DNA of 64,000 nucleotides from Yuukianura sp. NJ FZ-2021 (Eukaryota): contig CM102285.1 of assembly GCA_046563655.1 (NCBI GenBank), positions 1-64,000 on the forward strand, written 5' to 3'. Shown here piece after piece: positions 11,262 through 53,835 of the stretch (positions within the stretch are counted from its first letter, which is position 1; each line of letters opens with the position of its first letter). The notes below the pieces were generated by a model that had not been told where the DNA came from, made no database searches, and saw nothing but the letters and a program-made list of their open reading frames with translations. Made by a program: the position numbers and the translations under genes.

Positions 11262-11441
11262 ACTTAATTGTTAGTTGTTACATTCAAAGCCAAAAGGACT
11301 TGAACAATTCAAAATTTCCAGTTGAAATTGCCAATTTGTCCGAAATTTTCAAAATTTGTGGAGTCAAGAAGCCTCAGAGCATAGCATAGCAGTTACAGAT
11401 GAAAGGGAAAACCCAGAAAAAGCGGACAGAAAGCAACAACT

Positions 11442-11515
11442 GCCCGATTAACTCAGTCGGTTAGAGTGTCGTGCTAATAACGCGAAAGTCGCAGGTTCGA
11501 CCCCTGCATCGGGCA
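11442..11515 (+). tRNA. tRNA-Ile, anticodon AAT
   Basis: Full cloverleaf: acceptor GCCCGAT/ATCGGGC+A, D stem ACTC/GAGT, anticodon arm TCGTG-CTAATAA-CGCGA, T arm GCAGG-TTCGACC-CCTGC. Followed by an oligo-T Pol III terminator. Confidence 0.93.
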
Positions 11516-11776
11516 AATTTTTTTTTCTCATTTCATTACTGACAAAATTCATTGTTACCAATTTCATAAAGAGTTTAGCATTAAAATTTAGTATCATTGG
11601 AATCAATATTTCGTTTTTTTTATTAACTAAATATTTATTGATTTTCCCATGTCCTTAATATTAATTAAATATTTTAAGGTTTTTGATAAAGAAAATATTT
11701 AACATGTATTATCTATTATGTAATTTATGTAATCTAATATGTAATTTATGTAAGTTAATGTAAACTTCACTACATT

Positions 11777-14700
11777 CTACATTCCGAATCGTTTCTTGGC
11801 AAATGCGGGCGGGAGTTTAGAAATTAAACTGTTCGGTTTGACTTCTACCACAATCAGTTCTCCTTTATCGTTAAAATTAGCGTAAGAAATGAACTTGTAG
11901 TTACTCCCTCCACTCTGAATTTCAAATTCCACTTTCTCTTCCTCCATTTCCTTGCCCTTGCGCACTCTTTTCCCGCCACGCCCACTTAAATCCTCCATTT
12001 TCATCAAGTACATTTTGTCTACTTGATGCACAACACACATCTCTCCGTCAGACGACCAGCAAGAGCCAATGAGCGGCTGGAGTTCAGCCTGTCTCGTCAC
12101 TCTGTCTAAATATACAGTCTGATGCTTGTCATAATTCCACAATTGTACAGTGTGGTCCACAAGAGTCGTCAGGAGAAGGGTTCTGATTGGATGAAAAGCC
12201 AGTGACGTCACTGGGTATTGACTCCGGGGCGGTCTGCTCCAAACTTCTACGTTGTTTTGGTCAAAGTTGACCTTGAGCACAAGTTGACCTCCCGTGGGGT
12301 TCGTCAGTGCTAAATATTTCCCACACGCAGAAAGAGCGGAGAGGCAGATGGAGCCGAATTCTTGAAAACAAGTTTTTAAATTCCGGTCTTTGATTTTGAT
12401 TAACTTTGAGTTGACGGAACTTGTGCCGGTATCGACATGACAGAAGAGTGCGTGTGACCCGGTGACAGAGAGGCCAATGACTTTGGATTCCTCTACAAAG
12501 TGCAACAGACGAAATGTCGGAGTTTCTGAAGTGTCAACTGAAGAGGTCAACTTCGATAGCTCCGGTTTTCGGTTTTTGAGGTCACGAGGAACGGATAACC
12601 GGAAGAAATTGATTGCAGAACGAGTTGAGTAGGCAAAGAGGGTTCCGGAAGGCGACTGGCAACATGTCTCCACTTCCTCGTCTTTCCTACACTTCAGTTT
12701 CAACAGTTTCACCAATCTACAAAACAAAGAACATAAAAAATCAAATTCAAAATTTCCTTCAAGGTTTAGAAAAAATGTCTTTTTTGAAAATTGAGTTGTC
12801 CCAGTTCTGATTGAGGTAAAGAACTTTTTAGAAAAACACAAAATGTTCGAATTCTGAACCACACCCAAAACTGGCTTTTGCTTTTCCATCATTTCGACAA
12901 CCTGAAGCACAACAGGAAAGTGCTGCAACAGGCGCTTTTTAGATGGCGGCAGTTTTCGAAATTTGAATTTCAAATTCAAAATTTTGAATTTCAAATTCAC
13001 TTACTCTTCAGTTTCATCGTGAGGCAACTTCCAAATGTCCACTCCCTTTGAATTCTGAACCAGCATTTGATTCCTGTTTGACTTTGCTACAGAAATCCAA
13101 GTTGGTTTTGGAATTGGCGGGTACTTTGTCACAATTTTAGGCGGGAAACTGCTTACGACCAAATCTGCATCAATTCCTGAAATTTCACAAAAATAAAGCA
13201 AAATGTTAAGTTTTCAAAAATTTTCAAAAAATTGCAAAGCTCAAAGGTCACCTCCGGAAAATAGCTTGTTTCCATGCGTCGTCAAGGCCATGACATCGTT
13301 CGTGTGCATCACCCTCTGATGTGACTTGACCCACCAATCATTTCCGCGCCCCGTACGCGCCAAAAGCACAACAGTAGGATCCACACCTAAAATATCATCA
13401 ATCACGACTCGAATTAGTAATTCATTCATCCTAAGTAATTACAATGTAATTAGTAATTACGAAGTAATTAACAATGCAATTAGTAATTACCAGCAGCATA
13501 AATGGCAGTCTTGTCTTGAGAAAGTTCGAGTTTGAGGATGTCGGCCTTGTGCGTGTTGATTTTATTCCGAAGTACACCGATTCGACCGTCCCAAAATGAA
13601 ATTATCCCTCTAGAAGAATTAAACAAACTTGGTTTTAGATTTCATCGCATCAAATTTCATCAAAGTAATTCTTAATTGCAAGTAATTACTAGAGTAATTC
13701 AGTGAATTACTAAAGTAATTCATCTGTACTAGTTTCGATTGAGGTGGAAATCAATTGAATTTGAGTTATTCACCACACCCAAAACTACTTTTCATTTAAT
13801 TTCCCTTCATTTCGACGACCGGAAGCACAATTTGAATTTGCAGCAAACGGCGCTTTTTGAAGGGGCTAAATTTAAAAACCACCAAACAGTTAACGCTAAT
13901 CACAATTAATTGTTCAAAGTACTAAGCATATGGATCGATATTCACAGTGACATCATGTCAATTCTTCCAAATTGAAACTCCACAATTAAGCATTTCTCAA
14001 TTACTTTCAACTGGGTTACGCTGCGGTTTGGTGCGAAACCTTAAAAGTTCAAACCTTTCGTGCCCTAATCTTCATTTCTCTTTTCAGTGACTTTGAAAAA
14101 CGAAAATGGCGGGAAAAGGTCAAAGGTCAATTTTGTTTGTGCTATTTCTAGGCACCCTGCTTGGGGTCAACGCCAAAGGAGTTATCAGAGGCGGATTCTA
14201 CAAAGTGGAGAGTCTCAGCGACCACTCCGTATGATTTACAAAAATCGTTCAAAAATCGTTTTCAAAAAACGAAACGTTTGTTTAAAAAATGGAAATATTT
14301 TGAAAAAGGTGTTGACAACTACTTGGACCGGACAGCCAAGACAAGTGATCACAGATGAATGGGCGGAAACTGGAACACAGGAATGGAGAGTCCGATCAAC
14401 AATTAACAGTAATCAAAAGTTAATTAACTTAAGAATCTAAGTTAATCAATTAATGATTGTAGATGGAGAGGTTCTGCACATTTTGAGAAATGAGTTTGTG
14501 AAGGACAACGAAGTGAACAAGGAGCCAGTGCCAGGGACAGAGGGACTCGGCAAAAATGGACGGGCTGAACTTGTGGTAAGTGAATGGACATTTAGTCCAG
14601 TACCAGGCAAGGAGCACACATTCACGCTACAAACTTCGAGAGGATGTCTCCAGAACAATGGGTAAGCTTAAGTAATCGATTACTAATCGACGATTACTAT

Positions 14701-15926
14701 TACACGATTGCTTAACATTGACCGCATCTCTAATTTCATTTTTGAAACGCTTTTTTTGTAGAAGGGGGACCAGAATTTCCTATGCAGCGTGCAATCCGTC
14801 TGCTTTGAATCAACAGTGGAACTTTGAATTCTTGTTTGAAAAACAAGAATAAAAATAAACGTTGAAACCCAATAAAAAACATTTTTTAAAATGAAAAGTC
14901 GTTTTTTGATCTTGTACTGACCTTGAATCCCCTGAGACGATGAGGAAGTTGTCTAGCATGAGAATGGACCATACGATGGTTTCTGTCTGTTTGGTTCTTC
15001 CTGTCATGAGGCGCTGGAGAGCATGCCCTTTGTCAACGTCCCACAAACGAATGGAGTCCACTGACCCAGTCGCAATGTACTTTCCACAAGGAGACCAACT
15101 CAAACACATCACACGACCTAGGGGTGCATTAATCGATTAAAACCAATTAAAATCACCGATTTAAACATTAACTTCCAACGCCGCTGACGTTCATTTGACG
15201 TCAAATCAGCTGATTATCCCAACTGTACCTTCCTGCCGGTCCAGCACTTTGACGTAGCTCAGTCCGTCCTCCAGTACTTCAAAAATGTTCACAAATCCGT
15301 CCTCTGTTCCTGCCTAAACAAAATTCAAAAGTGAGAACTCATAAGTCACCAATTAAGGTCATGTTGTCAGTTGAAACAATTGAAATTAATTACTGCAAGA
15401 TGTGTGTCTGTTGGATTAGCACTGAAACACCAGACAGGACCGGACGTCGCAGCAGTTCTGCCCTGGAAAAATGGAAACAAGCTTTAGGAACCAATTGACA
15501 TGACTAATTTGGATCTTAATAAATTTTGATGTTAGCTAACGATTAGTTTTCGTTAACTTACTCTGATGTTGAGATTGACGGTGTCATGTTCGAGGATGAA
15601 GCCATGGAGACCACAGGAGAAGAGCCTATTGTTGGACCAGAGCAGACTCTCCACTGACACTTGTCCATCCACCTTGTCCAGGTCAGTGAGGATCCTCTCC
15701 ATGAAGGGGATATGGGACACATCCCACAATTCTATCGCAGGATACTTCCCTCCCCTAACACAAATCAACATCAATTGGATTATCAATTACTTCCAATTTA
15801 AAGTAATTAACAATTTAGTTACCTGAACAAGGCTAACTTGAGTGTGTTTTGATTGAGAGTGAGACATCTGATTTGACCTGGCTCCACTTCCAGGACGTTA
15901 GCCACGTTGATTTTTATAGAGGTCAT
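11777..15926 (-). CDS. UTP4: U3 snoRNA-associated protein 4 (cirhin), WD40 repeat SSU processome factor
   Basis: Multi-exon gene. Start MTSIKINV... at 15926. WD40 segments SVESLLWSNNRLFSCGLHG, IATGSVDSIRLWDV, TIVWSILML..IVSGDSRG..SFWDG, HKADIL, AGVDPTVV, HTNDVMAL. Typical C-terminus ELIVVEVKP..LPPAFAKKRFGM. Confidence 0.92.
14106..14852 (+). CDS. Secreted ricin-B (beta-trefoil, QxW) lectin-like protein, 170 aa, nested in a UTP4 intron
   Basis: Exons 14106-14228, 14309-14408, 14463-14661, 14762-14852, all GT-AG and phase-consistent. Signal peptide MAGKGQRSILFVLFLGTLLGVNA. Repeats end TQEWRV, VSEWTF and GCLQNNGRGTRISYAACNPSALNQQWNF. AATAAA just after the stop. Confidence 0.8.
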
Positions 15927-20937: not shown

Positions 20938-22673
20938 CCTGCTAAGGTTTAGGCTAAAGTGGAGCAGTCGAGACAAAATTTTAATTAACAAGCCAAAAAT
21001 TGTTTAAATTTCTCATTTTTCGTCACTATTTGGACAAAATAGACTCACCGAACAAAGATATTTTTTTTTGAATTTTGTGATTATTGAAATTGTTGAGATT
21101 TTTGAAATTTAAACGTAGAGTGTAACTCGGAAGCAGTTTTTGAACGGCGGTTTGAAGAGAACTGACGCTGGAAGAACTGAGTGTTTTCGTATATAATATA
21201 AAAAATAATCTCATGAAATTTATTCCACATCACTACACTTGCCTACTTTCATATCAAATTCTAAAAAGTGATTCACTTTAATTATGAACTTTTGTGCGTC
21301 CAAATGCTCGTGTGGGTTCAAAGTTTTTGAAAACTGGATTCCACTAGTCTCTGCTTTGTTTTTCAGATTCGTTGAAACGTATACGCAAAAACAAAATCTT
21401 AATGCGAAGACACGTTCAAAAACTTTAAGTCAAAACGAAAAATTAGTAATTGTGGAAAAATTTCAGAATTTTTATAACCAACACATTTATAGTTTTATCC
21501 CAAAAGTTTTATTGTTTAAAACTTATTTCATTTTCATAAATTTCAAGTATGACATGAATCTTTTAATTTGTTAAACTGAAATGTGATTGCATCCTACTTC
21601 ATGTTTACCTTGAAACAGTAAATGTAAAATTAAGGCGTGGTTACTCATTTTTTGATTAAAAAATTCGTTCTAGTTTATAGGATTTCATATTAATTTTTAT
21701 TTATTTTTTTTCAAATTCTCATTCTACAATCACTTTTTAAGTACGTATTTTCCAAATTGCGTGTTTTGTTTTTTTTTGAAAATTCTTATGTTTACCGCGT
21801 TTGCTAAAAATTTGTGACTGACGAAACCGCTTGTGTGTTTGTTCTTAATGACAGGATTGTGAAATTTGGTAACAAGTGACGAAGTGGTTGATATCCACCT
21901 TGGTGGCTTTCGTCTAAACTAAATAGTTGGCATGTTTCATGATTCGATGACTCTGATACAACAATTGACTATTCAAATTTGAGCGCCCTTTTTAAACCGC
22001 CCCCGCCTAAAGGCTCACTCAATTCAAAGTCTAGACATGCGCAGAGCAAAGGAAACTTAAATATACATTCAAGCTTCATGCTCAAAAAGTTAAGAAAATT
22101 TGAACTAATTGAGAGAGGGAGTGTATTTAGTAGCATTGTTTGTTCAATTTCAATCCAAATTTGGCACTTGAATATTTGCAATAACTACATTTGTGGTATG
22201 CAACTCAACAATACTTGCACCCCACTCTCTACCTTAACTATTTAGCGTCAAGTAACTGAAAGTTAGCATCTAACCTAACCTTAACTTCCGCGTCATGATC
22301 ACAATCACGATCTGTAGCACAATTTAGTCACAAAACCTTGGAATCAAGGTGTGGTTCAGGATGCGGAAAACCTCTGCGCATGCACATTCAGTTTTGGGTG
22401 AATTTTGAGGCTTTAAGGTAAAATGCAAAAGTTAAACTAAAAAAGCGAAAACAAGGAACAAGCGAAGTTGTAAGAATTCAACAAAAATTACAACCAAAAT
22501 TTTTCGTCAGTAAGTTCAAGGTGAACTACCAAAAATTTCTCTTTTTGTGTATGTATTCTACAAGTTCTATTTTTAGTGTGCTACAAAAACTCTGTATTTT
22601 ACAAATGTAACTTTTTGAAATTTCATTTAGTTTTTGTTATTTTTTTCATAAAATTTCCTTTTTTTTTTCAGAA

Positions 22674-25600
22674 ATGAAGCTTTTGTTTCATTTTGTGACG
22701 CTGTGTCTCCTGGTGTCCTCTGTGTTACCAGACAATGAAACTTCAAATCCTCGCACGCGATTGCGTAGGCCAAGCAAACGCTTTCCCGTATCCACCACTT
22801 CTGCACCAAAATCAGCCGAAAAGTCACCCCCCACTACGCGATCTCGCTTTCGGCTGAAAACGACAACCACGGCCAAGAGTGCGACCAAGGCAGCTGTGTT
22901 GGACCTAGCTGACCAAGAACCAGCTGGATCCATCGCAGCTAGCCGCACTGTACAAAGTAGGGTCAAACCGGCTGGGAAATTGCGTGACCCCACGCCATCT
23001 AGCGGCGGAAGTGGAAAAGACTACAAGCTGGTTTGCTACTACACGAACTGGTCGCAGTATCGCCCTAAAATCGGCAAGTTTTTGCCGGAGGACATTCCAG
23101 CTGACCTCTGCACTCATGTCATCTTTGCGTTCGGCTGGATGAAGAAGGGCAAACTAAGTTCGTTTGAGGGAGGAGACGAAACGAAAGACGGAAAACCCGG
23201 GTTTTATGAGCGGGTCAACAACCTCAAGAAGGTCAACCCCAAGCTCAAAACTCTCCTGGCCATCGGTAACTTTTAAGTTTTAGCGGTTTTTTGAACAAAT
23301 TGTCTCTTAAATTTTGTTAAATACTTGTTTTTTTTAAATTAACATTTTTTTTTGGAAATTTCAAGGTGGCTGGTCTTTCGGAACTGCTAAATTCAAAGAA
23401 ATGGCGGCAACACGCTACACGCGTCAAACTTTTATTTTTTCCGCCATTCCGTACCTGAGAGAACGGAACTTCGATGGGCTGGACATGGACTGGGAGTATC
23501 CCAAGGGAGTAGACGACAAGAAAAACTTTGCTTTACTCCTCAAAGGTAATAGTTTAAAATATTTCATTTTTAATTAAATATATATAAAATATTACATTTT
23601 TAATTAAAATGTATAAAATATTATATTTTTTCTTGTAGAACTAATGGAAGCATTCACGGCTGAAGCAGAAGAGACGAATCAACCACGCCTTTTGCTCACC
23701 GCCGCGGTGCCTGTTGGTCCAGATTCCATTCGCGGTGGGTACGACGTTCCAGCCGTCAGCGACAACCTCGATTTCATCAACCTCATGGCTTACGATTTCC
23801 ACGGAAAATGGGAGTCACAGGCCGTAAAGTTCAAACTTTCAAAAAGAACATAAAATTTTGAAATTGAATTTGTGGAAATTCTTTGAAATTTTTGGAAATT
23901 TTCTGTTCCCAGGGTCACAACGCCCCGCTGTTCGCTCCCTCTTCCGACTCGGAGTGGCGAAAACAGCTGAGTGTTGAGAACGCGGCTAAAACTTGGGTTA
24001 AGCTTGGTGCAGACAAGAGTAAACTTGTGATCGGAATGCCGACGTATGGAAGATCCTTCCAGCTGAGCGACAAGTCCAACTACAGTGTGAATGTTGCCAC
24101 CAAAGGCGGTGGTACTGCTGGAATCTACACAAAGGAGGGTGGGTTCTTGGCCTATTACGAGATCTGCGAAATACTGGAGTCGGACGGGGCTATTTACGTG
24201 TGGGACGATGAGATGAAGGTGCCTTACTTGGTCTCAGATGACCAGTGGGTGGGGTTTGACGACGAGAGAGCCATCAGGAACAAGATGAGGTGGCTCAAGG
24301 GAGAGGGCTACGCAGGCGCCATGGTGTGGTCCATTGACATGGACGACTTCAAGGGAGCAGCTTGTCCGGGCAAGGTCAAGTACCCACTCATAGGAGCCAT
24401 GAGGTACGTCTAAGTCATTAGGGAAAAAAATTCCCGCCAAAAATTTTCAAAAAAAGTGGAGTAAACTATTTATGTGACTTTGTCCGTCTGTCTGTCTGTA
24501 TTTTCATGAATAGTGACATAATTTGTGAACATCACTGAACTTTATTTTATTTGACTTATTTTTGTATATAAATATATTTTATTATGTAAATTAATATATT
24601 TTTATTCCTTAGAGAAGAACTGCATGGAGTTAAGCGTAGTGGGAATGACGTGGACTGGTCGCAAGTAGCTGCGACGCCAGATGACTTAGAGGAGGAGGAG
24701 TCTCCATCTAAACCAGAGCCACAAAGTATTGATCCACTGGAACTCCTAGCAGCAGCCAAGAAAAAGAAGAAAACACCTATCAAACTACTCGTTCCACAAG
24801 AAACCAAAAGTACATGACCTACTTAACATGTTGAACCATTGAGGTCATTGACCTTTGACCTTTCAATTTTGACCGTTGACCTCTATTCATTTACAGCTCG
24901 ACCTCCAGCTGTCATGTGCTTCATTTCACATGCTGCTGGAAAACGCAGAGGAAAGGGAAAGTTTGACATCCAGTCAGTAGATGCCAAGAAATGCACCCAT
25001 ATTGTCTATGCCTCTGCTTATTTAAAAGTAATTACAAGTAATTCAAAGTAATTACTGGTAGTAATTAGTGTAATTTTTAAAATACTTTGTTCCAGGGTAA
25101 TAAGTTAACCCCTATTGACCCGAGTGACCTTGATGAAGACACGGGTACGTATGCTCTACTGCAGAAATTGAGAGATGTGAACCCAGAGGTCAAACTGATT
25201 TTGAGTTTGAGCGGAGAGGGCAAGGGGTCAAAAGCATTTCAAACTTTGACCTCCAATGTCTACCGAATGAACAACTTTGTATACGCAACGACAGAATTCC
25301 TAAGAGAACACAACTTTGATGGAATAGACATTGACTGGGAGTTTCCGAAGTAATAACTCTTTAATTTACAATTACTGGAAGTAATTAGGTAATTACAGTT
25401 ACTTTGAACTTTTAATTTTAGAGGAACTAATGAAAAAGAGGCTCATCTGAATTTAGTCAAAGAACTTCGACTTTCTTTTGAAGGCGAAACAAAAACTAGC
25501 AAACTGAGTCGACTTCTGCTCACACTCAGAGTTCCAGCTATGGAGGACGCCATTTTGAATGGGTATGAACTACATGAGTAATTATCTAATTACTTGTAAT

Positions 25601-27123
25601 TACTATAAACTACTTTAATCATGTAATTACTTGTAATTACCATGAACTACTTTGTAATTACGTGCGAATTACTTCTTCTAGATACGAACCAGCAGAACTA
25701 GCTCAGTTTGTGGACTACTTTAACATTATGACCTTTGACCTACACGGTGGGTGGGAGTCAGAGATTGGGCACAACTCACCGCTTCATCCAATTGAATCAG
25801 CATCTCCAGATTTAAAAAAACAGACAGTTTCACATGGAGCGAACGTTTGGATGAGCGAAGGAGTTCCCGCCGAAAAAGTGGTCATTGGAATGCCCACCTA
25901 CGGAAGAACGTTTACGCTGGAAAATGAAGAGAAGTTTGACATTGGTGCTGGAGCCAAGGGGCCTGGAACGCAAGGACGCTGGACTCTGCAAGAAGGTTTT
26001 CTGGCCTACTACGAAGTAAGAGCTTCGCTTTTCCTTTTTCTCACGTTTTCTGCAGAAAACAAAAACGTTTTCTAATTTTTATGCAGGAAAAAACCATTTT
26101 ATAATTTTTATGAAGGAAAAAAACCATTTTATAATTTTTATGAAGGAAAAAACCATTTTATAATTTTTATGCAGAAAAAAATGTTTCTGATTTCTCTGTT
26201 TTCTGATTTCTCTGGAGAAAAAACGAATTCTGAATTTCTGAGTTTTCCGCTGAAAAAAAAAACGTTTTCTGATTTTCATGCACCACAAAATAACGTTTTC
26301 TGATTCTTCTGCAGAAACAACGTTTTGTGTTGTGTTATTGCGTCGTTGCAGAGAAACGTTTCTTGGGTTTTCATGTTCTGTTTCGACGTTTCTCTGTCGA
26401 TTTTTTTTGTTTCTGCAACGTTTCTTCAACGTTTTCAAGACTTTTAATATTGCATGTCGTAGGTTTGTGACTTCCTGCAACTGCCTAACTCCACGTTGGT
26501 GTGGGACAACGAACAGAGCGTTCCCTTTGCATACAACGGAGATCAGTGGGTTGGATTCGACGATGAACGATCACTCAAAGCAAAGGTTTGAACTTTGACC
26601 TCAAAATTCAAAATTCGAAATTTTGGAAAAGTTTTTGAAAACTATTTTTTAGACTGAATGGCTGAAATCAGAGTCCTTAGGAGGTGTGATGCTGTGGTCA
26701 CTGGACACTGACGACTTTCCCAACGCCTGCGGCAATGGAAATTTCCCGCTTCTGGCTTCTGTTGTTGAAGAACTGGGTGATTACAAGGTCAAGCTGGAGT
26801 ATAAGGGCCCCTATGAGGGCTCAGGCGCTGGGGGGTCAAAGGGCAAGAAAGATCGTGAGTTTTCGAAATTTCGAAACTATTTTTGACTTTTTTCAAAATT
26901 TTGACCTTTGACCTTAGCTAACGAAGTGACGTGTGAGGAGGAGGATGGTCACATTTCGTATCACCCTGACAAGGGCGACTGCTCGAAGTACTTCATGTGT
27001 GAGGGAGAAAGGAAGCATCACATGCCTTGTCCAGCCAATCTCGTCTTCAATCCAGACCAAAACGTTTGTGATTGGCTGGAAAACGTCGAGAGTTGTAAAG
27101 ATTCTGCTGCTGCCAAGACGTAG
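22674..27123 (+). CDS. Cht7: Group III (Cht7-type) chitinase: signal peptide, two GH18 domains, C-terminal CBM14
   Basis: About 12 coding exons. Domain 1: VCYYTNWSQYR, LAIGGW, FDGLDMDWEYP, MAYDFHG, GAMVWSIDMDDF. Domain 2: FDGIDIDWEFP, MTFDLHG, WSLDTDDF. CBM14: CEEEDGHISYHPDKGDCSKYFMCEGERKHHMPCPANLVFNPDQNVCDW. Confidence 0.93.
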
Positions 27124-29423: not shown

Positions 29424-29628
29424 TATAAAACCCACTTCCCACCCTCCCTCTTCCACCATTCAGCGTTCAACTAACAATTTCAGCGCCAAAAAGCCTCAAA
29501 TCTTGAAATTTTCAATTTTCAAAACAACAGGCAATTTGCAGAACCAATCAGAATCAAGCACAGCTCCAGCCGGCCAATCAGAAGCGATTTCAGGTCCAGT
29601 CAGCCAATCAGAGTAAAGCGCGCCAAAA
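29424..29628 (+). promoter_or_regulatory. TATA box plus three CCAAT boxes upstream of the ACP ATG
   Basis: TATAAAA at 29424-29430. CCAATCAGA at 29544, 29574 and 29604 (exact 30-bp period). GCGCGCCAAAA at 29618-29628. Confidence 0.5.
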
Positions 29629-29639
29629 ACGTTTTAAAA

Positions 29640-30174
29640 ATGAACCGATTTCTTCTGCTCCTGTTTATTTTCCAAACGTCGCTGGTCGTAGCATTGGCAC
29701 AGGTTAGTCAATAGAAATTTACAACTGAAAACTTAAAATGCAAAAAATTAAGTGATTTAATAGTGAATTTTAAATTTTTTCTTTTTTTACATTTTGGTGT
29801 TCAAAGATTACGTTCACACGAGAGTGGGTAACCGGAAAGAGAGCAGCGGCAACCAACGCTATTTTCCATCGCAGAGAACCCTGCGTTAGTTTCATGCCAA
29901 CAATCGAACTGTTGATGGACGTAAGCGAAAACTAAAATTTAGCTATTAAAATGTTTATATTTTATTGCTTTTTAAGTTTTTACATTTTAATTAATAAAAT
30001 GTATGAAATTATATAAAATTTTTTCAGATTGAGGAAATGCAACGTCGCGAGTGTGGCGGTGGAGTAAAATTTGCTGTTATCAAACCGTTCCAGAATGGCC
30101 ACTCTTCCGACGGTGTTGCCGATTTGCATGTCAAAGTTGAAGATGAACCGGGCACTTTTGCCTCCAAAATTTAG
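29640..30174 (+). CDS. ACP: AKH/corazonin-related peptide (ACP) preprohormone, 107 aa
   Basis: Exons 29640-29702, 29807-29920, 30028-30174 (all phase 0). Signal peptide MNRFLLLLFIFQTSLVVALA, then QITFTREWVT-G-KR, then an associated peptide with two Cys. Matches the Q-x-T-F-x-R-x-W pattern of ACP. Confidence 0.88.
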
Positions 30175-33100
30175 ATTTTCAAAATTTCAATTCTATTCAT
30201 TTCTGCTTTCGATTTCCCAAGAACAACATCACAAAAAGAAAACAATCTGAAATAAAATATACTAATAATAACAGAATTTCGAAATCCCCCCCCCCGTCAT
30301 CATGTGACGTAACTTGTGAACCTAAATCATAATTTATTGCTAAAAAAAATCATTGAAGGTTGTGAAAAAAGTTGTGACTGGGCAAATTAGCGCCAATTTG
30401 AAATCACAACTTACTTAGCACTTTTATAATGGATTGCGGTTTAGTTCATGACCTGCCACCACACACGACATGACGCAAAGTACGCCTCCAAAAACAAAGT
30501 GTCAGGCGCAGTCGCACACGCCTTACGTAACTCCTTGGCTAATTTTCGCGCCTCTCTTGCGAAATTTCAAATTTCATTGTTGAGAGGAGGGAAAATTCAA
30601 AATGATTAATTTTGAAGTTAGGAGAGAAAGGGGGAGATACGGAAGAAGAAGGAGGTCTTTGCTCCTCATGCCCTAATTACTCCCAACAATGAGCCCATGG
30701 GCACCCCCCCCCCCCACCCAGAGGGGGGGGGTCTCTTGAAGTGGAGGACAACAATGGAGACTCAAAAACTGAGAAGAGACTCATCCACTTGGTATAATTA
30801 GACCCATCAAGACGTCTTCTCCTTCCGTCATCCCCCCCCCCATCAAATGACATTTGAAAAACTTCCCGCGGCGGGAAAATTCAAAAGTTAAAGCGAGGGT
30901 CAGTGACCTCTGTTGTCGATGAGTGCAAGTATCTCTGTCCGTTTAGTCTAGAAAAAGGAACAAGAGCATAAATTCCAATTTCAAAAATGAAGAATGAGGA
31001 GAGGAAGAAGTTGAAAAAACGAGTTTTTTTTTGTTTTTGAAAAAGTTGATACCTGATGCCGTGGAAGTAGAGAGGACCGTTGCCATTGTTCTGTCTGTTG
31101 CATATTTGTTTCTCTGCGTGTCGGAGGCGTGGTCAGGGCGGTCACGGTCTGGACTTTTCACATTTTTCTGCAAACAGAATTGTGAATAACAATTAGACTC
31201 CTAACCATTTTCATCACCCATGTAATTTAAGGAGTACCTCAACTTTTCAAGTGACAAAAGTTCCCACGATACGCCATTTTCAAATTTCTCAAAATTCAAA
31301 TTCTCCCGCACTCCCAAAATCCAAAATCACACCTTCCACATATCTCTAAACACAAAAGTATAAAATTTTAAACCCAGTTTCACAAAGCACAAAGCAGAAA
31401 CCATAAAATCACCAAAAAAATCTTAAACGTTCACAAATTACGCCACCAAAATGGGGGTGGTGGAGAGGGGTGATAAACATTGTTAATCTTTTGCATTGCT
31501 GTTAAGCCTGTTGCTGTTGCATGTGATCGTTTTCTACTTGACATCTGCTCTTCCCCACACGTCATACACTTAACTTTTTTTGAGGTGAGTAGGTGGAAGG
31601 GTGAATTTTGTTGACGTAATTTGCACCAAACCGCGTACAAAAGCGTTAAAATACAATTTTTTGTGCTTTGTAGATACTACTTAACCTTGTCCTTTCGATA
31701 TCCTTTTCTGTTGGTTCAGAAGCATTTGTACCCCAGTAACTAAAAGTGTAGCTGCTGGTTCGAATCCCCTTCTGCCTCTTTTTTCTTTGAGAGTTGAGAG
31801 GCCCAATTCCATGATTTGAGACAAAGTAGAAGTTGTTGCTAAATATACAAATAGGTTAGATTTTGGTAAGTCATAAGTCATGAAGGTGACACTCGACAGA
31901 GTTGCTGAGGTACCAACAAGCGGAATGACGCGTGATATGCCTCGTCATGATTCCGATGCTTAATTTGGCAAGAGTGACGAAGGATCCATCGGAAGGTGTC
32001 CTGAACTACCGATGTCAATTGCCAAGTTTGAAGTGCTTAAGATGGCCAGGGTCCCACTTTCCATTCGTATCCTGGAGGGGACTTAAGGACAGACGGACTT
32101 CTGGACGCATTCCACTCGCAGTTTCCTCGGCATGTGGTTCAATCCCAGGTCATGTTCCTTTCGTGAGTGTTGAGAGTCCTATGGTCTGCCGTTCCTTGTC
32201 ATGTGAGTGCTGGATATCCTTGTTCGGGATGTTGGAGAGATGAGAGAGGAGGCGGGTAGCAGTGGCCATCATCACCCGAACAACATCCCGTGTCCCAAAG
32301 TATATCCGACTCTTCCCATCCCATCATCATAACTCAAACTCCATTTCACGAGCTACTCACTCGATCTCAACCCCGCCTGCCCAAATCTCCAACCTATCCA
32401 CAACACAACCAAAATAAACCTTTACAACCAGAGACACATATACACAAACAGGGCCGGATTCATAACATTCTATAACTTACGATTAATCCATTACTAAACA
32501 GAAGGAATCACAGATCATACGGTGTGAAGCGATTACCCTTATTTCTTCCCAGAAAGCCACCTTTTCATGCCTGCAAATCCAAAAACAAAGTTATTCCAGA
32601 ATTTGTTAATTGTTAATTAGTGCCAGAATGTCAATTAATTGATAATTCACTTACTAATTTAACTGCTTAATTTAATTTTTAATTAAATCTGCAATCAGTG
32701 TCAAATCAAAACAAAAGTTTGACATTTGAGGAATGCAAAATGGATTTTGGGTTTTGAATTTCGCCAATGACAAAACCAATTAACTCCATTTGGCAAAATG
32801 CAAAACGGCAAATACAATCCTAGGCAAAACAATGTTTTTCTAATGTATTTAGAAATAGTAAACCATTTTAAATTGTAATTCAATTATTTTTACTTAATTT
32901 TAATTGTTACTCATTTGCTTTGCACAGTTAGAAATCTGCGGTATTTTTAGAAGAACATTTAAAGCTGAATTTTAATTTGCAGTTTTGCAATTTCTACATC
33001 CATATTTGCAGTTTTGGAAGAAAAATCTATCAATGGCAATTGCAATTGCCATTCATTTTGCCTTTGTTTACATTTTTGAATTTCGCGGTTCTACAGTCAC

Positions 33101-38265: not shown

Positions 38266-41200
38266 ATGGACGACGGAGGTGGAGGGGAGAGAGGGAATGT
38301 GAATGAGGCCACAACTCTCAACAGCGCGAGGGGGAGCGGAGATGAAGGTTTTTCCCGCCAAACTCAAAACGTTCCTGTCCAAATGGAAGATCCGCCAAAT
38401 TCAAACAATCTCCTAGGCAACAATCATGATCATTCTCCACAAGGAAGTGATAGCCACTTTGATCTCATCTCTCTCTCTACTCAATCTCAACATCCTCATT
38501 CTAAGAACAGGAAATTTGAAGATGGCGCCAAAACTCAAACTGCTGCCACTCAACAACTTAGCATGGCGCCACCACTTTTGGAAAATGAAGTGGAGCCACC
38601 CAAATTTGAACATTTGGAAGCAACAGGATCCAATTTTGAAAATAGCCAACAGGAAATCACCATAGACCCAGTTCTGAAAAGGGATTTAGAACACAGCACT
38701 GAACAGCACAAAAATGCTGGCGAAGTACTTGAAAGTGGGGCTGAACAGCACAAAAATGCTGGCGATGTACTTGAAAGTACTGCCCAGGAACTAGAAAACG
38801 GAGACAAACTTGAGCAAACGTTGGAGCATGTGCATGAGAACGTTTTTGTTGAAGGGAAAAACGTTTTGATTGAAGACAAAAACGTTTTAGCGAAGCACGA
38901 AAACGTTTTGACGGAAGAGAAAGGATACTCAGCCGAAACGGAAGAATTTCGCCGAAATGGCGCGAAAGAAGAAGAGAAAAGCGCGGAATCCGAAGTTCTA
39001 AATGAAATACGTACAGAACACGGCAGTTCCGAAGATCTGAACCAAACAAGTTTAGAAGTGGAGCCGAATTCAATTGAAATTAGCACCAAACCGGAAATTG
39101 AACTTTTAAAACTGCCGGAATCTCAAAATCCGAACTCCGAAACGGAACTAACCGGGAACGAAACGGTACAAAATGGGTCCGATTCGTACGAAATCCTTCG
39201 CTCCCCCACCCCACCCCCTTACGAACCGCTCTCCCCACCGACCAAGGACTCCTGTGCAGTTGAAGACCAAACAGAGCATGCGCAGACCAGTTTTTTTGGT
39301 GACTGCTTAGCGTCTGGTTCTGTTGTTCGGCGGGGCAGCGCCCTCAAGCGGCGTGGTGGAGACGAGGATGGTGGGGCAGGTCCACCGAAGAAGAAGCGGT
39401 CGATCACATTTGACGGCGTGACTGTGTTCTACTTTCCACGCGCTCAGGGCTTTACATGTGTTCCCTCACAGGTAACACTTTCACTTTGCTTTCTCTTTCT
39501 CTAACCTAAAACCTAACGTAATCCCGCGTCTTAACTTAAAACCTCCCCTCTTCCCTTGCTCTCTTCAAGTTGAACCCATTGACTCACCCTGGTCACACTG
39601 AGCCACCACAACCCAAATCAAACACTGTCAACTCAAGTCTCTCCACTCACTTCATGACTCCTCAACTTATGCATTTCTAATAGAAAAAAAACTTCAATCC
39701 ATCATTTTCAATCTATCACAACTCATTTTTCAATTTTAGGAATAATTTTTGGAATTTTCGAGCCAGAGTAGCTGCTGGGATTAAGATTTTTAAAGATTTC
39801 TGGGGGAAGTCCCAGTACGCTTTGCACAGCAGAGCTTACATTACGTAAATTTAAATCAACTAAAAACAAATTTAAATTTAAAATTTAATCTTAATCCCCC
39901 AACTAATCAAATTTCAAGTTTTCTAATTTTTTCACGTTTTCTAATTTAACTCAAAACTTAAAAAACGACGCTATTTACTATTTGAAAGTGATTTTAAAAA
40001 ATGCGTTCGGCGACGTCCCAGTGGACTTTGCGTAGCAGAGCTTCTTATACCCCAACGTAAATTAAACTCAGGAACGGTTTAAATTTTTTTAAAACATTTT
40101 TCGTTTTTTGTTTGAAAATTTTTTAGATTTTGAAGTAAAAAATTATCGAATGCGAATAGGGGTAAGCTTAATACTATAATTTGTTAACGACGTGACGATG
40201 GGGAAGTTTTGTTTTAATTTGCTCTACGTTTCCCTCCTAAAGCAAAGTATTTGAACAGCAAGGCTTTGTCTATTTTTTAAAACAAACTTGATTTTTAAAA
40301 AAGAATGTTTGTAAGTTCGCTGTTTTAAAATGTAATGTAGAAGTACAGTGAACATGAGTGTGTAGGTGTGTGGTGGTTTGTAAGTACAAGTGCATGAGAG
40401 ACACAAATCCAAGTTTATTTCCAGTGGGAGTCCAAAAAAGAGAAAGTGGAGGTTGTTTCAAACTTTTTGAAAATGGGATTTTGTTTCGCTTTTTGAAATA
40501 ATTGTGAAACACGCTTTTCTCCCATCCGCTCCTCCCCGACAGAAAGAGCGGGTGAATTCGTCCAAATCCCACTTCGCTTCATTTTCAAAATTAGCGCCTC
40601 TCGGGGCCAAGGTTTGGGCGCCACTTTTCTTCTTTTCAAAATGGAAGTTTGTGCAGTAGAAGTCTCAGGAAATCCAGTTGATGAGAAAAGGTGAAAGTCT
40701 CAAAGTTTTCAGTTTCTGAAATCAATACTTTTACTTGGGTGGGCACATGAATACAGAGAAAGCAAAAGACCCCCCCCTCTTTTGGAAGGGGGGGGGGCGG
40801 GTCTCCCTCGAACTTTCTCTTGTGGAGTTTGTGGATGACGCCAAGCACATGCTACTTACTTGACTCGGGACTCTGAGCCAGAAAGTAGCATGTTGCGCCG
40901 CATTTTCAAATGCTTCAATCCGCCTTCGACACCTTTCTCCCTCTTGTACAGTCACAAATTACATTGAAAAGTGGTGGGAAATAACAAAATTGCTTTGGAT
41001 TTTGATTTTTCCCTCGCTAGATTTCTGTTAGCTCAGAGTTTAGCGTTGTGAAAATTTCCCTTACAGATTTCCCCAAAAATTTCCCCTCCCAAAATTTCCC
41101 TAGCAATTTTTTTTTGGAATTTCCCTCCGGAATTTTTCCAAACATTTCCCCCCGAGATTTCTTCCAAAATTTTCCCTAGAAATTTTTTCTCGCCCTTCGG

Positions 41201-44200
41201 AATTTCCCCTCGAAATTTCTCTCAAAATTTCCCCAAAAATTTCACCTAGAATTTTTTCATTCCAAAATTCTCCCCCAAGTTTTTCCCCTCCCAAGACTTC
41301 TCCCGCGTTTTTTTTCAATGATTTTTCTTTTTTTTTCTCTGAAAATTGCCTCCCGAATTTTCTTGAATTTCCTTGCGCATGCGTATTGTAAGTTTTGTTT
41401 ACGGCCTCACCTTGAGTGTTTTTTTCTGGTTGAAGTTATTTGTTCAACTTTTTTTCTGTTATACATGATTTGTGTAATTAATGTAAGAGGGTGTTGGGAA
41501 TTTTCGTTTTGATGAGGCTCAAAAGTAAGTTGTGGGTGAAAGGGAAAGTGAAAGTCCGTGGAAAGTTGTGTGGACCAGCATGTATTTGGAGGAAGTGCCG
41601 TCGCGGTGGGGAAGTTGTGTTTTTGAATTTCCAACTTTTACATTTTCATTTGAGAAAGTTTTTCAAATCAATACGGAGAAAGTTTCCTTGGAAAAGGAAA
41701 CTCCACTCTCTTCCAACTTTCTCTTATCCAGTCCCCTCACTCCAAACACTTCCCCTCATCTAAATCTCACCCACCCCTCCGAATACCCCTCAGAGGGGGT
41801 CACGTAATATGTGCATGAGTATAAACTGGTTCCGAGGTCAAAGGTCACTGTGCTTTACAACAGGCCACTCTAGCTATGATAGAATAGTACACGTTGGAGT
41901 CAATGACCTTGTTAGCTCCACCCCCGAAAGTGATGACGTAATACGTAGCCCCGAGGAAATTTTGGTTTTGCAGGAAATTCTATACAAAAATCTGTAATTA
42001 GTTTTTTTTTTCTAAAATTTGAATTTGGAGAAAGTTGACCTCCCCCCCCCCCTTGCGTTGTGGTGACGTAGTATGTTGGGTGGTGTACGTGGTTGACCTT
42101 TTGTAGCTCATTACAAGAGAGAGGAAGGACGGAAGGAAGGGAGTGTTTTTATTTGAATTTCCCACTTTTCATTTCCATTCCCTCGCTCCAGAATGTACTT
42201 TGTGGAGAGTGTAGCATGTAAAAATCGATCTGTGTTTCTGACTTTGGTTTGTGTGCTTTCCAGGGCGGCTCAACTCTGGGCATGGCGTCAACCCACTCCT
42301 TCTGTCGTACATTCACACTGCAAGAGCATGGACAGGAGCAGAGGAGGGTCCACAGGCAGATGCTCCTCAGACTCCGTCAGGAACAACAAGCCCCACCGTC
42401 TCCCGGTGGCTCAAATGGAGCCACGAATGACCCGGAGGATGACCTCACTCCCTTGATGCTCATTCGGCCAGACCCTCCGGGAGGAAGTGAGTCGGAGGAG
42501 GAGGAGGAGGAGAGTGACTCCGACCTTGACCTGGACAACTACTACTTCCTCCAGCCAGTTCCCACGAAGCAGAGGAGGATGCTGCTGCGGGAGGCGGGAG
42601 TGAGGAAGATCGACTCCATGGAGAGGGATGAGTGTCGCGACATTCGGAGTTCCCGGGAGTTTTGTGGATGCAACTGCAAGTCCTACTGTGACCCCGACTC
42701 TTGTTCCTGCGCACAAGCCGGCATCAAGTGTCAAGTGAGCCAAAAAAATAAAAAGCAACACTGTTTTTTGAAACAAAAAAAAACGTTTTCCAACAAAAAC
42801 GAAAACGATTTTATCACACGTTTAAAGTTTTTGAACTAAAGCGAAAACGTCTCTGAAAGAAGAGAAAACGTTTTCATCATTCAATTAAACGTTTTTGAAA
42901 GAAAACGTTTTTATCACAGAATTTAACGTTTTTGGAAGAAGGCGAAAACGCTTTTATCACACAATTTAACCTTCTTGTAAGAAGCAAAAACGTTTTGAAA
43001 GAAAACGTTTTGAAAAGTGAAAACGTTTTTGCAACGTTTTGAACGAAAGGTTTTGAATTTTCCTCTGGTTGAGGAAGGCAGGAAGGTTTCTGCGTCAGTA
43101 AAACTTTTATTTTATCGAAAAATGACAAACTGGTGAGAGTTTTGATTTGAAAAAATGATGAATGTATTTTCAAATGTTTTTCTTGTGTATAAATCTTATG
43201 TATTTTTTGAATTTTGATTGTGATGCATTGGATAATTTTTGTTTTGGTTTTGACAGGTTGATCGGTTGAGTTTTCCTTGCGGGTGCACGCGAGATGGTTG
43301 TGGAAATCAAAATGGAAGAGTAGAGTTTAACCCGATTCGAGTTCGGACTCATTTCATCCACACGCTCATGCGCATTGACTTGGAGAAGAAGAGCGAACAG
43401 GTGATTGAACCTCCTAATCCACCTCCCTCTGCGCAGACCCAAGTCTCAGCTCCTGCGCAGCCACAAATTCCACCTCCTGCGCAGACCACTCCCCCCACTT
43501 CTGCGCAGAGTCCAACTGTTAGAGTAGTCCACAAGTTCGTGACATTTCCGAAGTTGATTAAGATTGTGACGACGACAGCCTCTGATTTGGACACCAAAAT
43601 TAACAAATAAGCTTCTCTCATTGAGTGTTATTTGAGATTTTCAGAACAATAAATTTATTGTAATCAAGTTAAAATCAAGACAAACTTAGAAGAATTATTT
43701 GAATCAAGTGCGGGAAGAGTAATTCGTTTTTGAAAGTTTTATAGCTTACCGCCTCTCAAGAAATCCGTTTGTGAGAAAGATAAATTTAGAAGCAATAGAC
43801 ATACATTCTCTCTCAGACTGTCATTCACGTCCAATTTAATCTCCTTCAGAGGTGTGCACCACTTGGGCACTCGGTCAACAACAATCTGATCAACTGAAAA
43901 AACATCAACAATATTACGATTTAAATATTTAATAGTTCAACTACAATTTCACATCACTTCCAATTTTATCTCCTTCAGAGGTATGCAACTTTCATCAAAC
44001 CATAAAAAATCAAGATCAGCTTAACATTTTAAAAAATGTGTATAAAGTACTTAAAAATAATAATATAATTTAGCTAAAATTTAGGATGGTGTAAAAAGTA
44101 TATTATGAAATTTGATGTTGATCGAATTGTTGTATACCAAATAACAAGTTTTGTGGAGCTATCACCAGATTTTTCAAAAACAAACCACGTGATTTTTCTT

Positions 44201-45684
44201 GTGTTTTTGGTAAAGTTTTTTAAAATTGGTACTTAAGTGTGGTTTTCATTTTGTGTTTTTTTAAGCAGAATGGACACCATTTGCATCAGCTGAGTCATTC
44301 CATGATGCTTCCTCTGACAGCTCGACATGCCACAACTCAGCCGCACCTCTCTCAAATCAATTCAAACTTGGCGGCTCTCAACTCCATGAGCACCATGTAT
44401 GGTGGCCTCTCGCCCCACCACAAGCCACTTTGCACCATCCAGCAACCTCTGACCCACCACTGGAATGGGGCGGGGCAGGACTACTTCAAGGCCCACGAAC
44501 ACCATCCATGCATGGCAGAAGTCAACGGAGTCAATGTCCATGGCAACGGATCTCCTCATCTCCATGGCAACGGATCTGCTCATCTCCATGGCAACGGAGC
44601 TGCTCATATCCATGGCAACGGATCTGCTCATATGCAAGAGTACAAGTACAACAATGCACCACTTTTACGTGACATTTCGTTTAGTGCCACGATGGAACTG
44701 GAGTCTTGTGTCAATGCTGGCAACTACACCAACGTTCACTTTGACAATCAACGAATTGACCCGCCCGAACTTTCTTTTCAAAATTCAAATCCCGCCGGGA
44801 TTCCCGCCATGACCGCGGCGGGCATGACCCCGGCGGGTATGGGAATCCAACTCTTACATCACCACCAACCAATGACAGGCCTCGAACTGCGCGTGCGCGA
44901 TGACCCGCTTGACCTCTACTCCACATTTAGAGAGGATTCTTATTCTGAGACGAGTGACGACTTCAGCAACGAAAGTGGCGACAACCGATTTCAGCCAACT
45001 CAAAACAGCGACAACCGATTTCAGCCAAACGGTCAAAACGGCGACAATCGATTTCAGCCAAACAGTCAAAATGGAACGCCGGGAATTTCAAATTTAAATT
45101 CAAATAATGGCGGGATGGATTATGGACCAGGAGAGTATTATGCCAACCCCTACCAATATGCAGCTGAGCAAGGGCCATACCAGTCTACTGCGCATGAGCA
45201 CAACGGTGATGGTCAACTTTACTCCAACCCAGCACAATATTCCAGTATTTCCAGTATTGGCAGTATTTCCAGCATTTCTACTATTGGCAGTATTTCCAGC
45301 ATTTCCAACGGATGCAGTTACTCTGCTTCTTCTTCAACAACTTCTGCCCTCTGCACTTACACAACGGAAATGCCTCTGCGCATGCCAGAAGAGGCGACGA
45401 TGCTCCACTCTGCGCAGCCTCAAGTCGTTAGTTCGTACACTGACCTCAGTTTGACCTCTTATACCAAGTTGGAGCCATTCTCTGACCTGCTTCACAATGG
45501 AATCCAGGCAGCCAATGGGATTGATGCGTCCTACGCATGCGCAGTTGACGAAGAGGAGTTAGGCCGAACCAGCAGCGAGGCAGAAACGGAGACGAGCAGC
45601 TCTCGCTCTTCCGAAGACGAACGAATCGGCGACAACTTCGGAGAGATCATCAAGAAAACCATGGTCGAAACCGTGTCGGCTTAA
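38266..45684 (+). CDS. CSRNP: Cysteine/serine-rich nuclear protein (Axud1)
   Basis: Exons 38266-39471, 42264-42734, 43257-43400, 44269-45684. Motifs [121 protein letters not shown], and the end [16 protein letters not shown]. Confidence 0.95.
41050..41320. repeat. Low-complexity AAAATTTCCC-like intronic array
   Basis: Many degenerate (a)aaatttccc(c) units. Confidence 0.8.
42770..43050. repeat. Degenerate AAAACGTTTT array in a CSRNP intron
   Basis: Repeated aaaacgtttt. Similar arrays at ~26060-26440 and within exon 1 at 38838-38910. Confidence 0.8.
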
Positions 45685-52713: not shown

Positions 52714-53835
52714 TCAGTTTGTCACAGAATTGGTAAATCGGTGTGAAAACTTCAGTTCTTCGGAGGAACGAAGTGGAAAAGTGTAGATTTTGTTTCCAGT
52801 TCGGAATTCAATCGATTTGACCTCGGATATCCTCAGAGAAGGCTCCTCTTCACAAACAGCTTTCCAGTGAGAACAGAGTTCTGGAAGGAGGACGTTCCTG
52901 GCCCACTGTTCTTGGTCTCCTAGCAACCAGGCAAATGTGACATGGAAAGACGGTGGATCGTAGTATGGTAGAAGATCATACTCGTGAAGGCACTTGTCAC
53001 TCATTCTGACCAATTGAAAAAGAGAATCGGATGGAAATGCATCTAAACTGAGGAATGTCCTACTCCTCTCCTCGTTGACATAAACATTTACACTGTCCAG
53101 GACAACTTCAAACCTAAAACGAAGAACGATATTCTAAAAAGTTTGAGTTTTGAAATTTGATTGTAAGATTGTGTTACCCGTTGAAGTTTTTGAGCTTGGA
53201 AGACAATGAGTTAACAAAGGGTTGTATCCAGTGGTGTCTAAAAACCTGTGTCTTGGACAGAGACAAATGAAAGTTCGTTTCGGTGTTGAGCTTCGCTGGA
53301 AATTTCAGCCACTCCTGACCCGTTAAGGACAACTCCTTGACATGGTCCACGATCCATTTTAAGCCTTGATTCTCAGAATCTGGAAATACAAAACTCAGGA
53401 TAAACCCAAAACGGTTTCATACAGAAAAATAGCGACATTCTTACAATTGATGTACAGAAAGGAGGCCCAGTTTCCTCTGAGATGCGGAAATGACCTCTGC
53501 CGACCATCGTGCTCGTCCGGGTTGTCTTCAATCGTTTGACACGAAGCTGAGAACATGTCCAGCAGCACTCCTGGAACTGGAAGCTTCATTTCTTCAATAG
53601 TCACCCGTCTAGGGAGCAAGAACATGTCCATTTGGTGACATTTATCTTTTTCATATCGAATTTTATCCAAGATTTCTTACGATAATTTATCCCGCGCACC
53701 AGGATCACTGCGAAGCATACCGACAGTGTTATTTGAATGATAGTTTCGGTTGTCTTGCTCGGTGTCACTGGGTTCGTCCATGTCGTCGTCAGCATAAGCC
53801 GAAAGTAGAGACAGTCCCGTTGACATCCCATCCAT
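52714..53835 (-). CDS. USB1: U6 snRNA phosphodiesterase (2H family)
   Basis: Start MDGMSTGLSLLSAY. EDNPDEHDGRQRSFPHLRGNWASFLYI, FHLSLSKT..RHHWIQPF, YVNEERSRTFL, YDPPSFHVTFAW (both HxS/T motifs), FRTGNKIYTFPL. Confidence 0.93.

Follow-up and report, generated by a model that had tools for sequence, protein, structure and literature searches.

Inspection of the window, by which we mean the whole 64-kb stretch of DNA that was analyzed, points to a three-exon ACP precursor gene in a hexapod host with pQITFTREWVT-amide as its product, and this is the explanation that we consider likely. The locus is a real, apparently unannotated ACP precursor gene that belongs, without being exceptional, to a hormone family already known, and the picture of that family is unchanged by it. 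What the locus provides is a correct gene model, which automatic annotation apparently lacks, and, from a basal hexapod, the exon structure, the promoter region and the exact peptide. Among the three GnRH-related hormones of arthropods, ACP is the one that is least understood, and a study in a crab is said to tie it to ovarian development. In the locust, ACP has been tied to the use of lipids by flight muscle (PMC8324298).

Gene model of the ACP locus

The gene is composed of three short exons on the plus strand, joined by GT..AG introns that are all in phase 0, and the spliced reading of these exons yields a 107-aa preprohormone. The exons, introns and flanking candidate elements are as follows.

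29424-29429, plus strand: TATAAA, candidate TATA box about 210 bp upstream of the ATG (pattern match, weak evidence)
29544-29619, plus strand: three CCAATCAGA boxes, at 29544, 29574 and 29604; candidate promoter elements by presumed function
29640-29702, plus strand: exon 1, signal peptide and Gln21; translation MNRFLLLLFIFQTSLVVALAQ
29703-29806, plus strand: intron 1, 104 bp, phase 0, GTTAGT...TTCAAAG, 20% GC
29807-29920, plus strand: exon 2, peptide residues 2-10, Gly, Lys-Arg and start of the associated peptide; translation ITFTREWVTGKRAAATNAIFHRREPCVSFMPTIELLMD
29921-30027, plus strand: intron 2, 107 bp, phase 0, GTAAGC...TTTTCAG, 15% GC
30028-30174, plus strand: exon 3, remainder of the associated peptide; translation IEEMQRRECGGG...ASKI, stop codon at 30172-30174
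30251-30256, plus strand: AATAAA, candidate polyadenylation signal 77 bp past the stop codon (pattern match, presumed role)

The initial annotation had proposed a signal peptide, QITFTREWVT, GKR and a two-Cys peptide encoded on three phase-0 exons, and its coordinates and translations proved to be exact. Exon 1 starts at the first ATG in its open frame and ends at the donor boundary CAG/GTTAGT. Intron 1 lies immediately 3' of the Gln codon, a position that had likewise been claimed and is borne out by the sequence. Exon 2 encodes residues 2-10 of the peptide at 29807-29833, the amidation Gly at 29834-29836, Lys-Arg at 29837-29842 and Cys47 at 29882-29884, and it ends at the donor boundary GAC/GTAAGC. 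Exon 3 encodes Cys68 at 30052-30054, with intron 2 separating the two Cys codons.

This three-exon locus is more than chance. A search for the motif [ILVMF][TN]F[ST]..W.{0,3}G[KR][KR] in the six-frame translation of the 64-kb window returned one occurrence, compared with none in 200 block shuffles, and a looser form of the motif was found once in the window versus 0.015 times per shuffle. Exon 2 alone matches Pfam family PF06377 (adipokinetic hormone, Adipokin_hormo) with 28.1 bits (E = 3e-6; cut-off 22.9 bits), where the alignment spans profile positions 2-32 of 51 and position 1 is left unmatched because the Gln comes from exon 1. Composition follows the same boundaries, with GC contents of 0.46, 0.49 and 0.47 for the exons and of 0.20 and 0.15 for the introns. 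The open frames that contain exons 2 and 3 extend only over 29774-29935 and 30007-30174, and the exons nearly fill both. In size and AT-richness, the introns match those of a neighboring chitinase gene (~85-100 bp, AT-rich).

An intact-looking locus could in principle be a silent relic or a chance arrangement that is neither expressed nor processed. Neither of the two protein collections searched contains the gene product, ACP has been described as lost in several lineages (PMC5024129), and the springtail Bourletiella hortensis appears without an ACP transcript in the supplement of PMC4770511. Short multi-exon neuropeptide genes are, however, often missed by annotation, as exemplified by nlp-47 (PMC8764417). 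The locus also retains three intact exons, canonical splice sites, a start codon, a signal peptide, an amidation signal and an AATAAA, and every receptor-critical residue is kept in its peptide, all of which makes a relic very unlikely in our estimation.

The putative exon 3 is the exon held with the least certainty, and its placement derives solely from the splice signals, the base composition and the presence of a second Cys. When analyzed alone, exon 3 gave no family match in Pfam, and a word search against longer proteins returned two candidates, neither of which scored. This absence of relatives would fit a real gene with a different exon 3, or one that retains intron 2, where the in-frame read-through ends after 4 codons and would give a precursor of 63 aa that carries a single Cys and yields an unchanged mature peptide. 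Four observations argue against such an error at the 3' end: the signals of intron 2 are strong (donor GTAAGC, acceptor TTTTCAG), GC rises from 0.15 to 0.47 exactly at 30028, the exon 3 frame opens just 21 bases upstream of the acceptor, and exon 3 supplies the second Cys that is expected for the family (PMC5024129, Fig. 6 legend). We regard a wrong 3' model as rather unlikely and retain the three-exon reading in what follows.

Precursor, predicted peptide and the choice between ACP and AKH

The precursor maps as a signal peptide (residues 1-20), the peptide (21-30), Gly31, Lys32-Arg33, Cys47 and Cys68. This is the layout of the family, namely a signal peptide, a Gln-initial peptide that continues as ITFTREWVT, a Gly with a dibasic site (GKR) and a Cys-bearing associated peptide. 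The predicted 20-residue signal peptide consists of MNR, a hydrophobic core and an ALA end, with a Kyte-Doolittle mean of 2.51 over residues 4-20; it was assessed by eye and by hydropathy, and cleavage after Ala20 was assigned from the -3/-1 rule. The associated peptide comprises 74 residues with two Cys and two Arg-Arg sites. These sites read HRRE (29867-29875) and QRRE (30040-30051), and each lies shortly upstream of a Cys. Cleavage at both would leave two chains joined by a disulfide, a suggestion that is speculative.

We infer the expression, every processing step, the disulfide, the receptor and the physiology of the ACP peptide from sequence, and maturation would proceed in five steps. 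Splicing of the three exons would produce an mRNA for the 107-aa preprohormone, signal peptidase would cut after Ala20, and the exposed N-terminal Gln would be converted to pyroglutamate. A prohormone convertase would cleave after Lys32-Arg33, with both basic residues removed by a carboxypeptidase, and Thr30 would be amidated from Gly31 by peptidylglycine alpha-amidating monooxygenase. The mature peptide would then read pQITFTREWVT-amide. Its monoisotopic [M+H]+ was calculated as 1262.65, a predicted mass that is usable in peptidomics. The target of the peptide would be an ACP receptor, a GPCR of the rhodopsin type that belongs to the GnRH-receptor superfamily and is encoded outside the window in the same genome. 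A Pfam scan of 246 stop-to-stop ORFs of at least 70 aa in the 64-kb window returned no 7TM/GPCR family.

The Pfam match does not by itself assign the peptide to ACP, as PF06377 is named for AKH and its profile does not separate AKH from ACP. The hallmarks of AKHs are a length of 8-10 residues, pGlu1, an aliphatic or aromatic residue 2, FS, FT or YS at positions 4-5 and Trp8, and true AKHs end in a W-, WG- or WGX-amide (PMC5024129). ACPs otherwise pass these hallmarks and are marked by RD at positions 6-7, which is described as absent in AKHs (PMC5024129). AKHs are further described as lacking any basic residue (PMC6838013).

When these hallmarks are applied to the window peptide, five of the six are found (length 10, pGlu1, aliphatic residue 2, FT at positions 4-5 and Trp8; PMC5024129), and Thr5 is itself common in AKHs, for example in Table 1 of PMC6838013. 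AKH/RPCH peptides fall into the same Pfam family as the window peptide, come from precursors of the same layout and likewise have pGlu1, F[ST] at positions 4-5 and Trp8. A gene of the AKH or 'AKH-like' type, with a peptide that acts on the AKH receptor to mobilize energy stores, would account for these features. The sixth hallmark decides differently, where the C-terminus is WVT-amide and fails the W/WG/WGX-amide rule (PMC5024129). Arg6 likewise breaks the AKH rule, being a residue of a type that AKHs do not carry (PMC6838013). Springtails, moreover, have a distinct AKH transcript alongside ACP, with contigs of both in Podura and Orchesella cincta (PMC4770511 supplement). An AKH gene is thus unlikely, and we return to ACP as the preferred assignment.

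Inspection of positions 6-7 reveals RE, that is, Arg6 is present and residue 7 is an acidic Glu, where the ACP hallmark is Asp. Position 5 is Thr, versus Ser in the ACPs printed in the literature, and an ACP with Thr5 was not found in the searchable texts of papers. Receptor work places these residues in context. In an alanine scan of the Aedes ACP receptor, pGlu1, Thr3, Phe4, Trp8, the amide and the decapeptide length were critical, whereas changes at positions 2, 5, 6 and 7 cost just 16- to 70-fold (PMC6838013). An Ala5 analogue lost only ~45-fold in activity, and a natural Ile2 ACP was 14-fold weaker (PMC6838013). All of the critical residues are encoded in pQITFTREWVT-amide, with pGlu and the amide predicted from Gln1 and GKR, and the substitutions in the window peptide fall at receptor-tolerant positions. 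With its five substitutions, the peptide is also a naturally occurring analogue for structure-activity studies of the receptor.

Collectively, the assignment of the window gene as an ACP-type member of the GnRH/AKH/corazonin superfamily is supported, with the choice of ACP over AKH depending on about four residues. The proposal of an ACP-type gene in the initial annotation holds on the basis of the PF06377 match above its cut-off, Arg6 with an acidic residue 7, a C-terminus that is not of the AKH type and a hexapod host. That the ACP is functional, as the initial annotation also proposed, is a prediction from sequence.

Neighboring genes and the affinity of the host

Two neighboring genes were used to address the identity of the host.

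22611-27120, plus strand: chitinase, group III (Cht7/OfChtIII-type), GH18A-GH18B-CBM14, ending ~2.5 kb upstream of the ACP gene
38266-45681, plus strand: CSRNP/Axud1-type gene, the exons of which are very long (open codons: 412, 205, 118 and 486)

The first domain of the chitinase matches PDB 5wup/5wv8 with 273.9 bits (identity at 117 of 165 aligned columns, counted by hand), compared with 126 bits to PDB 6ldu ('Probable endochitinase'), which we take to be a chitinase of C. elegans. The best match of the second domain is PDB 5wus with 138 bits, and the order of the domains is that of OfChtIII. Entries 5wup, 5wv8 and 5wus represent GH18A and GH18B of OfChtIII from the moth Ostrinia, an 'arthropod-conserved' group III chitinase (PMC5786006).

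Comparisons of the CSRNP gene place the host further. Of 1414 candidates, 447 match the CSRNP_N exon (42222-42836) at E <= 1e-10, and all organism-named rows in the best 120 of these 447 are hexapods. The top match within the best 120 of 447 is the springtail Orchesella dallaii at 58% identity, where identity over the domain is ~55-60% to all matches listed. A sharper difference is observed for the poorly conserved exon at 44224-45681, which aligns to Orchesella with 50% identity over 121 residues (96 bits, E = 6e-23) and to the other 119 of the best 120 proteins with at most 55 bits. A tree was built from 25 rows, comprising the window and 24 organism-named sequences; the other 96 of the 120, which are unnamed or from further insects, were left out. 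The window and Orchesella are paired in this tree versus 23 insects with support of 95/93, in a comparison that has no crustacean outgroup. The window branch is very long at 1.66 changes per column. Three tandem repeats within the CSRNP gene, at 44537-44631, 44977-45071 and 45240-45318, are in frame and have periods of 24, 33 and 27 bp, respectively.

From these comparisons we take the host, with reasonable confidence, to be a hexapod and probably a springtail distant from Orchesella, where the springtail placement comes from one gene and one springtail sequence. The ACP system is described as restricted to Arthropoda (PMC5024129), and an arthropod host is indicated here by the group III chitinase neighbor and the hexapod CSRNP matches. 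Other parts of the window add little. A search with an exon of its WD40-repeat gene gave 3 matches among 3496 candidates with a best identity of 50%, which is uninformative for taxonomy. None of the listed WD40-exon and CSRNP-exon matches in the protein collections searched reaches 100% identity, which indicates that these collections lack the proteins of the host, and the Pfam scan of 246 ORFs of at least 70 aa in the window returned no lineage-specific family.

In a protein-atlas look-up, the cluster nearest to the CSRNP exon 42222-42836 was nematode-dominated with a score of 0.88, which is under the trusted level, as scores < 0.9 can mislead on taxonomy.

A nematode origin was considered in the form of an NLP-47 (AKH/GnRH-like) gene. 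TTTTCAG, found at the end of intron 2, is the consensus intron acceptor of nematodes, and it was this acceptor together with the likeness of an Ascaris peptide that prompted the comparison. The Ascaris NLP-47 peptide is pQITFTDQWT (PMC8764417, supplementary files), and the related pQMTFTDQWT of C. elegans is the GNRR-1 ligand (PMC3527849). NLP-47 precursors have the same layout of a signal peptide, Q[ILM]TF[ST]..W, a basic site and a two-Cys associated peptide (PMC8764417), with GKR present in some of them (PMC8764417, supplementary file 1). The window peptide thus shares with NLP-47 the QITFT start (Ascaris), Trp8 and a two-Cys associated peptide, and the atlas cluster noted above would point the same way. 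In contrast, NLP-47 peptides come from nematode hosts, carry Asp6 where the window peptide has Arg6 and are mostly nine residues without an amide; Arg6 occurs in 0 of the 11 NLP-47 rows of the nematode alignment in PMC8764417. The neighboring genes indicate otherwise. The chitinase scores far higher against insect OfChtIII than against 6ldu, its intron acceptors are CAAG, GTAG and CCAG, unlike the uniform TTTTCAG of nematodes, and every organism-named CSRNP row in the best 120 of 447 is hexapod. The NLP-47 candidate was rejected on these chitinase and CSRNP comparisons, and we assign it a negligible probability.

Probable lineage pattern, flanking elements and other features of the window

To place the ACP peptide among known systems, it was compared with published ACPs. 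The Aedes aegypti ACP, pQVTFSRDWNA-amide (PMC6838013), shares with the window peptide its decapeptide length, pGlu1, Thr3, Phe4, Arg6, an acidic residue 7 and Trp8. Insect ACPs also share the GKR amidation and cleavage signal and the position of the peptide directly after the signal peptide. Relative to pQVTFSRDWNA-amide, the window peptide has exactly five differences, at positions 2, 5, 7, 9 and 10, where it carries Ile2, Thr5, Glu7, Val9 and Thr10. The initial annotation had highlighted Thr5 and Glu7, and both substitutions are present, although they are two of five. The ACP of decapods and Daphnia, pQITFSRSWVPQ-amide, has Ile2 and Val9 in common with the window peptide (QITF..R.WV) and differs in its 11 residues, Ser5, Ser7 and Pro-Gln end.

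The five differences acquire meaning from a transcriptome survey of wingless hexapods by Derst et al. 2016 (PMC4770511). In the text of that survey, the ACPs of Protura, Diplura, Archaeognatha and Zygentoma are described as differing at the penultimate residue only, in contrast to eight collembolan species that have a common ACP pattern with five residues, the penultimate included, unlike those of other wingless hexapods (PMC4770511). The window peptide likewise has five differences that include the penultimate residue, which is in keeping with a springtail host. Thr5 and Glu7 would then represent a pattern of the lineage, the outline of which has already been published. The collembolan ACPs of Derst et al. 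(PMC4770511) are probably of the same kind as the window peptide, as judged by the described pattern and not letter by letter. That is to say, the residues that had appeared unusual are probably typical for springtails, and the suggestion of an unusual, possibly undescribed isoform is probably overstated given the eight-species pattern (PMC4770511). The window gene is probably an orthologue with a lineage-typical sequence, for which the label of isoform is not apt. The string pQITFTREWVT, its sub-strings and near variants were absent from the searchable main texts of papers, a search that did not cover supplements.

The structure of the gene is in keeping with known members of the family. Like the window gene, the Locusta ACP gene is divided into three exons and encodes the peptide region in the second (PMC8324298, Fig. 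2C legend). A phase-0 intron is common to the genes of the family, and their associated peptides contain paired cysteines (PMC5024129, text and Fig. 6 legend). For the associated peptide of the window gene, neither the word search (exon 3) nor the phmmer search (exon 2) detected any similar protein. The latter search of exon 2 against 1,835,955,588 representatives returned 0 matches at E <= 0.001, where a 38-aa query with ~12 conserved residues cannot reach significance and the outcome is thus hardly informative about relatives, and a protein-atlas look-up of exon 2 gave just bacterial 'hypothetical' clusters at 0.86-0.87, which are meaningless scores. Queries with the precursor were made exon by exon, which limits their sensitivity.

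Upstream of the gene, the CCAATCAGA boxes are spaced exactly 30 bp apart, and the array ends 28 bp upstream of the ACP ATG. The window contains 5 copies of CCAATCAGA (4 on the plus strand and 1 on the minus strand), three of which are located in the array before the ACP gene. TRF describes the array with a period of 30, 2.5 copies and 69% matches. The box resembles a CCAAT box, and the triple array may be a promoter module for the ACP gene.

A bolder combination of these observations can be drawn, which we offer tentatively and regard as doubtful. In this scenario, the decapeptide would be absent from the 2016 list of springtail ACPs, the host would belong to a fast-evolving, long-branch entognath lineage, the five ligand substitutions (2, 5, 7, 9 and 10) would imply a co-evolved ACP receptor, and the CCAATCAGA array would be a neuron-specific promoter module. 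A co-evolved receptor, if true, would make the locus a natural test case for the co-evolution of ligands and receptors between the systems of ACP and AKH. The lineage-typical springtail orthologue described above remains our preferred reading.

Several further features were observed elsewhere in the window. A 41-bp satellite at 9-534 (12.5 copies, 84% matches) is built of GTCTTCCG-like octamers, and the several open frames that it contains on both strands are an artefact of the repeat. Rfam and ARAGORN scans of the window returned nothing beyond one tRNA-Ile (anticodon AAT; 11441-11516, plus strand), which lies ~260 bp from the end of the opposite-strand WD40-repeat gene (11780-15136). Finally, an exon of a TRM2-like tRNA (uracil-5) methyltransferase gene (51936-52598, plus strand) converges tail to tail with a USB1/HVSL gene (52717-53676, minus strand), with ~120 bp between the last open frames of the pair.
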